DNA of 64,000 nt from Thomasclavelia spiroformis (GTDB lineage Bacteria; Bacillota_I; Bacilli_A; Erysipelotrichales; Coprobacillaceae). Location: NCBI RefSeq assembly GCF_018369555.1, contig NZ_JAGZCC010000002.1. One strand, 5' to 3'. Under the pieces are notes generated by a model. The model had not been told where the DNA came from and made no database searches. It was given only the letters and a program-made list of their open reading frames with translations. Positions within the stretch are counted from its first letter, which is position 1, and each line of letters opens with the position of its first letter. The position numbers were made by a program, and so were the translations under genes. Shown piece after piece: positions 1-7,656 of this stretch.

Positions 1-8
1 ATAAAATT

Positions 9-45
9 AGACTATTAATAACTTGATTATTGATAGTCTTTTTTT
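9..45 (+). terminator. Intrinsic terminator hairpin (AGACTATTAATAA..ATTATTGATAGTCT plus T7) ending a transcript that starts upstream of the window
   Basis: 13-bp inverted repeat with 1 mismatch, 4-nt loop, followed by TTTTTTT. A near-identical stem sequence recurs at 6798-6836 and 7483-7518. Confidence 0.5.
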
Positions 46-48
46 AGG

Positions 49-157
49 TGTAAAAAAACGTAAAATTATTTTACATTTTTTTTAGATAGAAATAATGTAA
101 AAAGAATTACATTTTATCTAACTTATCTAAATAGTTTTACTATGCTATAGTATAATT
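49..157 (+). promoter_or_regulatory. Promoter module A: CGTAA-N7-TTACA (59-75) and TGTAA-N6-TTACA (96-111) palindromes, then an extended -10 TGcTATAGTATAAT (143-156). It drives the GH92 gene through a roughly 150-nt 5' UTR.
   Basis: Read directly from the sequence. The same module architecture and spacing are repeated at 6336-6433 and 6857-6954. Confidence 0.5.
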
Positions 158-313
158 AGGTAAAAAGTTTTACATAATTTTTACAATCTTTTTACTAACA
201 TGATATGTTTTTATCGTTGATATATGACATATAATTTTTATGATTTTAAAGGTGGTGATAAAGTTAGAGGGGATTAAGTTATTAATATAAAAAAATGAGA
301 AAGGAGAAAACAA

Positions 314-3300
314 GTGAATAAAAATATTACTCGTTTATTAAAGGGAGCGTTAGCTTTTATAGTTGCATTTTCAACAATGGCGATTACTTCACCATCGAGA
401 AAAGTAAATGCAGTTGAACAAGAAGAAAGCTATACTCAATATGTTGATCCATTTGTATGTACTGATGTTGACTATGGTCAATTATTCCCAGGAAGTGTTG
501 TACCAAATGGATTAGTTAAATTAAGCCCTGATACATATCCACATAATACACTTGATCACGCTGGATATGATTACAGTAAATTACAAATTCAGGGATTTTC
601 ACATACAAGAATCGAAGGAGTTGGAGGTCAAGGTGCGGGAGGAGATGTTTTAGTTACTCCTACATATGTAGAATATAGTAAAAGACCTCAAGCTAAAACT
701 CGTGCGATGAATTATACAAAAGAAGATGAATCAGCTAAACCAGGATATTATAGTGTTGAATTAACACCTAAAACTGGAAAAGATAATGATGTTCAAGATA
801 GTCCAGAAGTTGGTAAGATTAAAGCAGAGATGACAACTGATCAACGTACCGGTTTTCATCGTTACACATTTCCAAAAGCTGGAAGTGTAAATATTATTAC
901 TGACTTAAACTATACTTATCATGGTACGGATATTAGAAATGCGTATGTAGATGTATTAGAACAAAATGATTCTACTACAGCTATTGGTGGAAGATTTAGT
1001 GGTAGAAATGTTGGTGGAAGTGGTAAATATACAATGTATTTTTACATGGAAACAAGCAAACCTGCTAATAGTGTAAAAACATGGAATGATACAACTTTAA
1101 GTGATAAAACTTCACAAAAAGGTAATGACATTGGAACAGTCATGAATTTTAATGTTAAGGAAAATGAAGAAATTCAATTAAAAGTAAGTATTTCACCGAT
1201 CAGTGTAAAACAAGCAGAAATTGATATGCATAATGAAATCAATGACTGGGATTTTGATGCAGCTGCTTTAAGAGCTGATCAAGCATGGAATGATGTATTA
1301 AGTAAAGTTAGAGTAGAAAGCTCAGAAATTAGTGATCCAACTGGTGAATTAAAACAATTATTTTATACACATTTATATCATATGTTCATGACGCCAGTAA
1401 ACGCTACAAGTACAAGTGGAACATTTAGGGGAACAGATGGAAAGATTCATGAAGCTAATGATTATACACATTATGATTCATGGACATTATGGGATGATTA
1501 TCGTAAATATCCAATGATTGGATTGGTTCAACCAGATACATATAAAGATATGGTAAAATCAATTGCAAATGCATTAGATTATGGAATTGTTACATGGTCA
1601 CATGATAAACAACCTGTACCAAATGTAAGAACAGAACATGCTGTTGCTTTACTTGCAGATGGTGTGGCTAAAGGATTTACAGATATTGATAATCTAGAAG
1701 AAGCATATCGTGAGGCTATTAAAATTGCTAATAAAGTAGTTAAAGATGATATTGGTTATGTTCCTGGAAGAATGGATCAAACTGTTGAATATGCATATGA
1801 TGACTGGTGTTTATCAATTATTGCAGATGCTTTAGGTCATGAAGAAGGGACTGAGTATTTTTTAGATCGTTCATTTAATTACAAAAATTTATATAAAGAA
1901 AATGCTGATCAAGAAACTATTGATGATGTAGAAAAACAATTTGGTTTATTAATAAGTAAAAATGCTGATGGTTCTTGGAAAAATGTGGATCCAAGATCTT
2001 ATAATGGGGGATTATATCAAGGAACTCATTGGCAATATACATGGTATTTATCAAATGACGTTAATGGATTGATGGATTTGATGGGTGGAAAAGAACGAAT
2101 GTTTGATGCATTATCAATGTTATTTGGTGAACATACTGATGGAAAATCAATTATGCATAATGCTGCTAACGAAGTGGAATTACATGCACCATATCTATTT
2201 AATTTTGCTGGCAGACCAGACCGTACCCAATATTGGGTAAGAACTATTTATACAAAAGAAACATATAATGATAACTATACAGGATCATCAAATAAACCTC
2301 AAAAAATGTATAAATTAAGCCCACAAGGATATTTAGAAACAATGGATGATGATGCTGGAACAATGGCAATGATGTTTGTATCAGCTGCAATGGGTATTTT
2401 CCCTATGACACCAGGAGATACAACTTTCCAAATTGGTTCACCATTCTTTGAAAAAATAACTCTAGATGTTGGAAATGGAAAAACATTTACAATTGAAGCT
2501 AATAATGTATCAGCTGATAATTTTTATATTCAATCAGCAACGTTAAATGGAAAATCATTTAATCGTACATGGATTGATTATTCAGAAATTACTAGAGGCG
2601 GTACACTATCATTTGAAATGGGAGATACACCTTCTACATGGGCACAAAATGGAGTAACTGCAAAATCAAGTAGTGACAATGCCGATACATCAACATATGA
2701 TGATGATGAAATAGCATATTCATCAGCAATGTTTGAAGAATCAAAAGCAAATAATGGATCATTTGATCAAAAAATAGTAATCACATTAAAAACAAAAGAA
2801 TTTGCTGGAGAAATTGGAGAAGATTTAGTAGCAACAGGAAAGATCAATATTACTAATGTACCAGAAGGATTAAAAGCTTCAGCAATAAAAACAGAAACAA
2901 ATAAAGTTGAAGTATCATTAAATGGAAAAGCAAAAAATCATACATTAAATGATAGTATCAGTAATCTAACAATCGAAATAACTGACAAAGCAACAAATGA
3001 AGCAATAACAGACAGTATTCGAAAAACAAAAGATAATGTCAAAGTGATGTTTATTGATAATCAATTAACATATTCACAATCAAAATTTAAAGAAAGTAAA
3101 AGTGATGATGGAGCGATTTTAGAAACATCAACAATTACTTTAACAGGAGATGCAACATTTACTGGAGAAGTAGAAGAAGATTTTGTAGTGACAGGAAAAG
3201 TACAAATTAACAATGTACCAGAAGGATTAACTGCAAAAATGATCAAGATAGACGATCATACAGTAGTATTGAGTTTTGAAGGAAAAGCAGTAAAACATGA

Positions 3301-6856: not shown

Positions 6857-6954
6857 TGTAAAATAATTTTACATAAATTTTGTCTATAATTTATGTAAAA
6901 AAACTTACATTTTATCTAACTTATTTTAATTAATATATTATGGTATATTATAGT
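6857..6954 (+). promoter_or_regulatory. Promoter module C: perfect 17-bp palindrome TGTAAAATAATTTTACA (6857-6873, TGTNA-N7-TNACA), TGTAA-N6-TTACA (6894-6909), and extended -10 TGGTATATTATAGT (6941-6954)
   Basis: Read directly. The first element fits the GlnR/TnrA-box consensus exactly. Confidence 0.5.
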
Positions 6955-6960
6955 TAAGAA

Positions 6961-7518
6961 AAAGATAAAGGGGTGATGAGATAAAAAGTACTATGATGTA
7001 AAATACACGCGATAAAAAAATACACATCATTAATTAACTATCTAAAATCATTAAATAAATTGCTAGATATAATGTGATAGATGGAAAACTGGTACAGTTT
7101 AACAAACTGTTTAACCGGTAAATTTTAAAAAATTTCTCTTTAATATTACTGTAATATGAAAAATTAATTTGGCTTGATGAATTAGTATTTATAAATATTG
7201 CAGTAGATTCAATTGGTACAATTGTCAAAAATAATAACCAATGATATTTATTACTATTTAAAATAATATATAACTATAAAAATTAATAGTACAACAAATC
7301 AATAATAATCTAAAATAAATATTAACTGGTTAGAAATTATAATATGATACACAATACTTAAAATAAAACAATAGATAAAAATATTAAAAATACTTGATAT
7401 AATAGTAAAAAAACTTTTCTTTCCTTTCCTATCGACATTTACAATAAATTAGTATTGAAAATATAATTATCTATATGGTTTTAACTATTAGTAACAATAG
7501 GTTATTAATAGTTTTTTT
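6961..7518 (+). ncRNA. Candidate about 560-nt noncoding RNA (unit C) with CU-rich box CTTTTCTTTCCTTTCCT (7414-7430) before its terminator
   Basis: Promoter module C upstream, no ORF longer than 15 aa, terminator at 7483-7518. A paralogous body segment (AGTATTAGAAATTGTATTGAA at 6780-6800 vs AGTATTGAAAATATAATT at 7451-7468) is shared with unit B. Confidence 0.3.
7483..7518 (+). terminator. Intrinsic terminator AACTATTAGTAAC..GTTATTAATAGTT plus T7
   Basis: 12-bp stem with 1 mismatch and a T-run. Related in sequence to the hairpins at 9-45 and 6798-6836. Confidence 0.5.
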
Positions 7519-7561
7519 ATTTTATTTGATGATAATATTTTATTAAAATAATAAAAATATA

Positions 7562-7590
7562 TTGACAACAGATAATGTTTGATGCATAAT
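7562..7590 (+). promoter_or_regulatory. glnN promoter: -35 TTGACA (7562-7567), 17-nt spacer, -10 CATAAT (7585-7590). A TGTTTG..CAAACA inverted repeat (7577-7598) overlaps the -10.
   Basis: Sigma-A consensus spacing, 65 nt upstream of the glnN start. Confidence 0.5.
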
Positions 7591-7656
7591 ACAAACAATA
7601 AGTAATAAATATTTATCATTAAGATATATATTTATCAATAAAAAGGGGGCAACTTA

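Follow-up and report, generated by a model that had tools for sequence, protein, structure and literature searches.

Tandem noncoding units beside a GH92 glycosidase array are candidate regulatory RNA genes of the Thomasclavelia spiroformis lineage

The 64,000-nucleotide (nt) stretch of Thomasclavelia DNA analysed here (contig NZ_JAGZCC010000002.1; the window) carries, between the surface glycosidase gene GH92-3 and the glnN-asnB-gltBD operon, two same-strand units, B and C, each made of a promoter module, a body without open reading frames (ORFs) and an intrinsic terminator. We found that these units are non-random in their repeat architecture, devoid of coding capacity, paralogous to each other, under selection, restricted to one lineage and independent of glnN; their transcription, their regulator and its signal, and their base-pairing mechanism and targets we infer. 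Our most likely reading takes units B and C as candidate regulatory RNAs that are new, but of a general kind already known, and tied to the glycosidase cluster. Regulatory RNA genes are classically recognised by this combination of an orphan regulated promoter, a conserved body without ORFs and an intrinsic terminator, and we consider the units probably to be functional noncoding elements maintained by selection. An initial annotation of this DNA had suggested nitrogen-regulated paralogous small RNAs (sRNAs); its picture of ORF-free, paralogous units stood up to analysis, whereas control by nitrogen and GlnR did not.

A repeat search of the window grouped the promoters of GH92-3 and of the two units into one direct repeat family with three copies of 115 nt on the + strand, at 51–165 (module A), 6327–6441 (module B) and 6849–6963 (module C); modules B and C are 66% and 78% identical to module A, respectively. 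Each module contains two palindromes, which in module B both have the form TGTAA-N6-TTACA (6336–6351 and 6372–6387). In modules A and C, the proximal palindrome is of this N6 type (96–111 and 6894–6909) and the distal one has an N7 spacer (59–75, CGTAA..TTACA, with one mismatch, and 6857–6873), so that the centre-to-centre distances are 36.5, 36 and 36.5 bp in modules A, B and C. All four TGTAA-N6-TTACA sites of the window fall inside the modules; 0.34 sites are expected in shuffled sequence, and none of 100 shuffles reached four. Directly 3' of the proximal palindrome, all three modules carry TTTTATCTA (112–120, 6388–6396 and 6910–6918), and exactly 31 nt past the proximal palindrome lies an extended −10 element, TGnTATAnT: TGCTATAGT at 143–151, TGCTATATT at 6419–6427 and TGGTATATT at 6941–6949. 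These elements are overlapped by TATAAT in module A (151–156) and by TATAGT in modules B (6427–6432) and C (6949–6954), and no good −35 was found in any of the three modules. Predicted transcription starts are at about 6434–6440 for unit B and 6956–6962 for unit C. The initial annotation had described three modules in the same orientation, each with two palindromes whose centres are 36 bp apart and an extended −10 beyond them, copy A preceding the GH92 gene and 59–75 being an N7 palindrome with one mismatch; repeat search and alignment bore out each of these points.

Module A lies about 160 nt upstream of GH92-3 (314–6250, + strand), which encodes a 1,978-residue surface glycosidase with GH92 N-terminal and catalytic domains, three CBM6 domains, a CBM35 domain and FIVAR repeats (Pfam). 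The architecture common to the three promoters suggests that one DNA-binding protein probably controls GH92-3 and both units, and because the promoter is common to GH92 genes, its signal is likely to be glycan-related. Module A alone has a third palindrome-like site directly past its −10 (GGTAAAAAGTTTTACA, 159–174, one mismatch), a possible additional operator over the predicted GH92-3 transcription start.

The bodies of unit B (6436–6797, + strand) and unit C (6958–7482, + strand) are 97.5% and 97.9% identical in T. spiroformis, and neither contains a + strand ORF of 20 residues or more. Together with their terminators, they predict transcripts of about 6436–6836 (~0.40 kb) and 6958–7518 (~0.56 kb). 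Both units begin with a purine-rich sequence that resembles a Shine–Dalgarno (SD) sequence (GAAGGTGAT, 6436–6444, and GGGGTGAT, 6970–6977) and includes a GGTGAT element (6439–6444 and 6972–6977), recalling the 5' stabiliser elements of Firmicute mRNAs. Units B and C are paralogues, with 78% identity between their promoters and a colinear alignment at about 63% identity over the 3' ~280 nt. This 3' domain includes a CU box (AAACCTTTCTTTCCTTTC, 6745–6762, in unit B and AAACTTTTCTTTCCTTTCC, 7411–7429, in unit C; both + strand) with the consensus (A)AAC(C/U)UUUCUUUCCUUUC and the core CCUUUCUUUCCUUUC, which is invariant in both units and in both species. Fold prediction gives the CU box, which is better conserved than any other internal feature, a probability of being unpaired of 0.74–0.83 within the 3' domain, compared with 0.40–0.48 for the whole 3' domain.

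The CU box stands just 5' of a small hairpin and the terminator; in unit B, the hairpin (6766–6796) adjoins the terminator without overlapping it. Both unit terminators end in seven T residues, that of unit B (6798–6836) having a 16 to 17-bp stem (−15.6 kcal/mol) and that of unit C (7483–7518) a 13-bp stem (−11.9 kcal/mol). They form one sequence family (repeat families D11/D12) with the + strand terminator at 9–45 (−12.1 kcal/mol, T7) that belongs to GH92-2, a gene ending just before the window. A simple terminator scan overlooked all three hairpins because their stems hold fewer than three G-C pairs. The stems keep pairing through G-U/A-U changes, with compensatory differences between B and C, and in the stem of terminator B, three of three species differences preserve pairing; across all confidently paired positions, six of eight species differences retain pairing, which is too few for a decision. 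ORF scanning and folding thus upheld the earlier description of B and C as ORF-free intervals with a CU box followed by terminators of the same family. That description did not list the separate terminator of GH92-3 (6273–6320, + strand, −18.1 kcal/mol), which is unlike the unit terminators in sequence and 93% conserved in T. spiroformis.

The initial annotation had named a small protein encoded by the homologous intervals of relatives as a finding that would speak against noncoding units; on comparison with T. spiroformis, we found no conserved small ORF in the units. Individual candidates were set aside. A 5-residue mini-ORF after AGGAG (6692–6721) has no counterpart in the unit C alignment, and a minus-strand ORF of 64 residues (7034–7228) shows species differences without third-position bias. 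A hydrophobic, type I toxin-like ORF of 26 residues (MSIGKERKVFLLLYQVFLIFLSIVLF) lies on the minus strand at 7358–7438, antisense to the CU box of unit C; it lacks an SD sequence, its counterpart in unit B has no start codon, and a 1-nt deletion at 7407 frameshifts it in eight of eight T. spiroformis sequences. Searching 6251–7656 for a decayed glycosidase gene by tblastn with GH92-1, GH92-2, GH92-3, the T. spiroformis arabinofuranosidase described below and GH32 gave a best E value of about 1. Among known RNA families, Rfam 15 returned no match at gathering thresholds in the 64 kb and, by E value, only two chance-level matches (E up to 5) in 1–7700.

We next turn to conservation. The window species is a Thomasclavelia close to T. 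spiroformis; its glnN product is 98% identical to the T. spiroformis one, and T. spiroformis contigs (L021–L025, L032–L035 and L042) carry both units at the same place. With the four-fold sites of glnN, asnB, gltD and dinB as the neutral reference, 20 of 887 positions of the unit bodies differ between the window species and T. spiroformis (2.3%), compared with 65 of 721 four-fold sites (9.0%; Fisher P = 1.7e-9). The difference holds at A/T positions (1.7% versus 5.7%) and at G/C positions (4.3% versus 34%). Similarly, across 11 sequences, segregating sites amount to 2.8% in unit B and 2.5% in unit C, compared with 9.0% at glnN four-fold sites. The palindromes, TTTTATCTA and the −10 elements are unchanged between the two species; changes in promoter B are confined to the spacer 6407–6416, and module C is 99% conserved. 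Between 7327 and 7518 there is no base substitution, the deletion at 7407 being the sole change. By contrast, the 12 bp that separate terminator B from module C (6837–6848), an internal neutral control, are unconserved, with 8 of the 12 positions variable between the species. Low divergence in the bodies next to so scrambled a spacer points to purifying selection that acts on promoters, bodies and terminators. We considered whether a recent transfer of the whole block might account for the low divergence and rejected this, as divergence is uneven, with a scrambled spacer and 92–96% identity in the terminator and leader regions (glnN leader, 95.7%; GH92 terminator region, 93%).

The surroundings of the units are themselves repetitive. 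A contig that encodes an identical GH92 protein and extends the window in the 5' direction (L001; window position = L001 position − 9687) carries two further GH92 genes, GH92-1 and GH92-2, in tandem on the same strand downstream of a DUF956 gene, with the GH92-2 stop codon at window position 1. Degenerate versions of the module precede both genes (L001 220–330 and 5030–5100). Read against this contig, the units stand at the end of a tandem glycosidase array with predicted 'terminator plus module' junctions. GH92-1 and GH92-2 are called as fragments of 77, 142 and 1,294 residues and of 115, 635 and 662 residues (L001 386–9688), which points either to genuine frameshifts or decay into pseudogenes, or else to homopolymer errors in the long-read assemblies.

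In T. spiroformis, a gene for a 1,274-residue arabinofuranosidase-like protein, absent from the window species, lies between GH92 and unit B. This surface protein has Laminin_G_3, ASD1, Alpha-L-AF_C and FIVAR domains (L021 4770–8594, compared with window 5408–6326). GH92-3 of the window shares its last 50 nt exactly with the 3' end of the arabinofuranosidase gene, and the terminator region that follows is 93% identical. This likeness suggests that the window species lost the arabinofuranosidase gene when recombination within the common FIVAR/anchor region deleted it. The leader of the arabinofuranosidase gene (L021 4640–4770) has its own promoter, and within it GGGTTGTTACTATTCAATTAGGCAAGACT overlaps a terminator hairpin (AGACTATACAC...GTGTAGTCTTTTTTT) whose sequence resembles the terminators of B and C; we take this overlap to resemble a BglG/SacY-type ribonucleic antiterminator (RAT) target. 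In one T. spiroformis variant (L023), an IS66 transposase stands where GH92 would be.

Such an array offers another explanation, namely that B and C are non-functional relics of former glycosidase genes that lost their coding regions through deletion or decay, retaining a promoter, the start of a 5' untranslated region (UTR), a 3' UTR with the CU motif and a terminator, and that any transcription is noise. The units fill 'gene slots' of a same-strand tandem array with terminator-plus-promoter junctions, in an array that is prone to recombination (the additional arabinofuranosidase gene and the IS66 variant of T. spiroformis) and in which both upstream GH92 genes are called in fragments; the GH92-1 3' UTR has a similar CU motif and terminator. 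However, tblastn detected no coding remnant, neither unit has lost its operators or its −10 element in either species, and the bodies are about fourfold (at G/C positions, eightfold) more conserved than synonymous sites, next to the scrambled 12-bp spacer. On balance, we regard the relic explanation as unlikely.

As regulatory RNA genes, units B and C would be two paralogous, independently transcribed noncoding genes, each driven by a GH92-type, regulator-dependent promoter with two palindromes, TTTTATCTA and an extended −10. A glycan-responsive DNA-binding protein would switch them on together with the GH92 alpha-mannosidase-family cluster, and each transcript would end at its own intrinsic terminator. 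The 3' domain would then expose the CU box as a single-stranded sequence similar to the 16S rRNA tail. The Firmicute 16S rRNA 3' end includes CCUUUCU, and the CU box repeats these bases; it may therefore pair with GAAAGGA-type ribosome-binding sites of target mRNAs and alter their translation or stability. Ribosome-binding sites of this type precede large surface glycosidase genes nearby. Among 44 start regions of the window, the best CU-box duplex was predicted at the GH32 site AAGAAAGGAAAGGGAAAAUAUG (GAAAGGAAAGGGAA, gene at 19748), with −17.0 and −18.9 kcal/mol compared with a median of −8, and GH92-3 ranked fourth. We favour glycan-co-regulated, trans-acting RNAs that work through the CU box only tentatively, as a reading that falls somewhat short of probable. 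A more specific proposal, that tandem glycan-induced long noncoding RNAs mask the ribosome-binding sites of surface glycosidases (GH32 at 19748 and GH92) and so rank the glycans of host or diet, maybe with a read-through link to glnN-gltBD, is in our view rather doubtful.

Several observations weigh against such trans-acting RNAs. A shuffled CU box gives a similar median duplex energy and many ribosome-binding sites would pair with the box; since any purine-rich site scores, the target prediction is no more than a lead. The core CCUUUCUUUCCUUUC lacks the UCCC or CCC usual in Firmicute seeds, and 0.4–0.56 kb exceeds the typical length of base-pairing sRNAs (50–300 nt). The two units have unrelated 5' halves. 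RNAalifold, applied to B and C from the two species, supports only the terminator as a conserved structure, and fold z-scores are modest (−3.1 for unit B and −2.5 for unit C) and largely driven by the terminator. Only two closely related species carry the units, too few for covariation, and the selection test has just four genes as its neutral reference. The GH92-1 3' UTR (L001 4950–5020) has a CU-like TTTTCTTTCCTCTT followed by a terminator, which fits an origin of the units from gene ends. Finally, a second promoter-like match near GH92-3 (TTGATA-16-TATGAT, 217–244) means that this gene may have another promoter besides module A.

The units might also be protein-sponge RNAs, whose long A/U-rich bodies would sequester an RNA-binding protein as CrcZ/CrcY or CsrB do. 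A length of 0.4–0.56 kb is typical of sponge RNAs; there are two paralogues with a link to carbon sources, and conservation is spread along the bodies and not confined to one seed. We find this reading improbable to a marked degree, given that no repeated motif was identified beyond the single CU box, that the 5' halves of the paralogues are unrelated and that no candidate binding protein is known here.

Alternatively, the DNA itself might act, with the RNA irrelevant: the four additional palindromes as decoys for the regulator, an alternative that the initial annotation had raised, or the units as promoter/terminator insulators between the glycosidase cluster and glnN. This would suit palindromes that are highly enriched, perfectly conserved and identically spaced, a position between two differently regulated operons and a strong terminator ahead of the glnN promoter. 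It would leave the selection on 890 nt of body, the CU box and the terminators unexplained, and a decoy would require neither the −10 kept at a constant distance nor the terminator. We therefore consider a DNA-level role improbable.

The initial annotation had linked the array to nitrogen control through the adjacent glnN-asnB-gltBD operon, with 6857–6873 as an exact match to the GlnR/TnrA box TGTNA-N7-TNACA and 59–75 as a match with one mismatch. The exact match at 6857–6873 is literally there, yet it carries no statistical weight, as the window contains one exact match compared with 2.98 expected. Allowing one mismatch, the pattern is under-represented (46 matches versus 65.7 expected). Of the six module palindromes, one fits the 17-bp pattern and the other five are N6 or mismatched. 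The likeness to the GlnR/TnrA boxes of Bacillus consists of one palindrome in six that fits a degenerate 17-bp pattern, and it differs from those boxes in being unenriched, located off nitrogen genes, variable between N6 and N7 spacing, and without a conserved association with glnN. The single exact N7 match is no more than a variant in spacing, as its paralogous palindrome in unit B has N6.

Nor do the nitrogen genes themselves carry the pattern: with up to one mismatch, there is no match in 7519–7656, which spans the glnN promoter and leader. The glnN operon has its own + strand promoter, TTGACA-17-CATAAT (7562–7590), separate from the units and preceded by an AT palindrome, TTATTAAAATAATAA (7540–7554, + strand). 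Both are conserved in L029, a relative whose glnN is 89% identical, and are candidates for the true nitrogen-control site. As for a regulator, the 64-kb window encodes no Crp/Fnr or GlnR-like protein; its only MerR protein (259 residues, 44984–45763, minus strand) is not of GlnR size. The CRP/FNR-like geometry that the initial annotation saw in the N6 elements is there, since the Crp/Fnr 5-6-5 arrangement fits the four exact N6 sites, although their distal homologues in modules A and C have N7 spacing. The comparison extends to geometry only, as the half-sites are all of the TGTAA/TTACA type rather than the TGTGA/TCACA of Crp or the TTGAT/ATCAA of Fnr. The proximal palindrome is centred 42.5 bp before TATAnT, which corresponds to about −54.5 or −59.5 according to the choice between the overlapping −10 elements and relative to a start that is predicted only. 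Crp/Fnr activator sites centre at about −41.5 or −61.5, plus further helical repeats. A literature search found no use of the TGTAA-N6-TTACA motif.

Comparison of glnN loci further separates the units from nitrogen genes. In L029, the units are missing and an RpiR/phosphotransferase system (PTS)/GH38/glycerate-kinase operon is followed by a 165-nt gap before glnN; in Longibaculum (L026, glnN 83% identical), the units are likewise missing and purF lies 5' of glnN. Because the units are absent at glnN in both relatives and the glnN promoter is kept in L029, they must have arrived with the glycosidase cluster, and it is an accident of this lineage that they adjoin glnN. The proposed nitrogen regulation through glnN therefore fails on three counts: no box at glnN, no units in these relatives and no enrichment of the pattern. 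As a whole, the reading of B and C as nitrogen-regulated paralogous sRNAs in a glnN regulon under GlnR/TnrA or Crp/Fnr, for which one exact and one single-mismatch site and the neighbouring operon speak, is the least supported of all and very improbable; the paralogous site in B is N6, and the same promoter type drives a glycosidase gene.

Position alone would also allow cis read-through from promoters B and C into glnN-asnB-gltBD, coupling glycan use to nitrogen assimilation, or regulated antitermination. The units are on the same strand directly 5' of glnN, the terminator stems are A/U-rich with just −12 to −16 kcal/mol, and in T. spiroformis, the leader of the arabinofuranosidase gene has a similar terminator with the look of a target for antitermination. 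However, glnN has its own conserved promoter past terminator C and works without the units in relatives. We found no RAT, ANTAR, T-box or riboswitch match and no RAT-like sequence before terminators B and C, and the hairpin before terminator B adjoins that terminator without overlap. We assign read-through only a slight probability.

Wider searches likewise suggest that no lineage other than that of T. spiroformis has the units. The promoter pattern gave only 14 single matches in 185,579 species genomes, all in unrelated taxa and attributable to chance, with no Thomasclavelia record among them; in viral contigs, it gave three single matches, which we also take as chance. A pattern of the CU box plus AGTATT found one true locus in Joint Genome Institute (JGI) metagenomes, the T. 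spiroformis contig L042, and an nhmmer profile of the 3' domain found no additional copies in any examined locus. GH92 homologues of 73–77% identity in other bacteria (L049 and L050) lack the palindromes upstream. Every T. spiroformis metagenome contig examined carries the promoter pattern, unlike the species-representative genomes; either this region is absent or broken in the representative Thomasclavelia assembly, or the collection does not include it.

Elsewhere in the window, the GH32 gene opens a fructan-type locus (19748–31814) and encodes a surface enzyme of 1,659 residues. It is followed by genes for a sugar-binding protein, a HisKA_3 kinase, a LuxR-type response regulator, a second solute-binding protein and a mannose-family PTS (EIIA-D). 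Three other ORFs, 32954–34660 (568 residues), 35788–36618 (276 residues) and 58027–58992 (321 residues), have no Pfam match at E values up to 1e-5.

The closest known parallel in architecture is LhrC1–5 of Listeria monocytogenes, a set of homologous sRNA genes, each with its own LisR-dependent promoter and terminator, whose CU-rich single-stranded sites pair with the purine-rich SD region of a surface-protein mRNA (PMC4132741). Units B and C resemble this system in their multiple copies, single promoter type, individual terminators and CU-rich box, which here would pair with ribosome-binding sites. They differ from it in having one CCUUUCUUUCCUUUC box where LhrC uses UCCC three times per RNA, in their 400–560 nt, in their regulator and in showing no sequence or Rfam similarity. 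LhrC RNAs are ~110 nt, far shorter than the units. The CiaR-dependent sRNAs (csRNAs) of Streptococcus pneumoniae are paralogous, some of them adjacent, share a repeat-type regulator site and carry anti-SD sequences. Paralogy and a promoter with a common regulator site are thus shared with B and C; however, csRNAs are about 90–150 nt long with a direct-repeat operator and an anti-SD sequence in a defined stem-loop context, whereas the operator of the units is palindromic, and there is no homology.

In size, the units are closer to RNAIII of Staphylococcus aureus and VR-RNA of Clostridium perfringens, which measure 0.4–0.5 kb and are controlled by a regulator at paired sites upstream of a weak promoter. 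The C/U-rich elements of RNAIII act on ribosome-binding sites, and the activity of VR-RNA lies in its 3' region. Both are single-copy, highly structured and encode peptides (hld in RNAIII and a small ORF in VR-RNA), whereas the units are a tandem pair without ORFs, in which little structure is supported. A link to glycan loci in a gut bacterium is shared with GibS and DonS of Bacteroides, noncoding RNAs that are located at or co-regulated with glycan-utilisation loci and thought to set glycan priorities, DonS being cis-antisense; phylum, promoter type and RNA architecture differ, and there is no homology. Among the literature matches listed, we found no relevant transcriptome or sRNA paper on T. 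spiroformis.

The reach of these findings is modest, as they concern one lineage and candidate RNAs recognised from sequence, and they correct an attractive link to nitrogen control as unsupported. If transcribed, units B and C would give the Thomasclavelia/Coprobacillaceae group its first described regulatory RNAs, and they would exemplify sRNA genes born inside a tandem glycosidase array through the reuse of promoter and terminator junctions. The three promoters of identical architecture, one with a gene and two with putative RNAs, provide a compact handle for finding the regulator that would recognise TGTAA-N6/7-TTACA. If the proposed role is true, the units would represent a Firmicute counterpart of the sRNA control over Bacteroides polysaccharide utilisation loci, and the locus could serve to probe post-transcriptional control of glycan use in Gram-positive gut bacteria.

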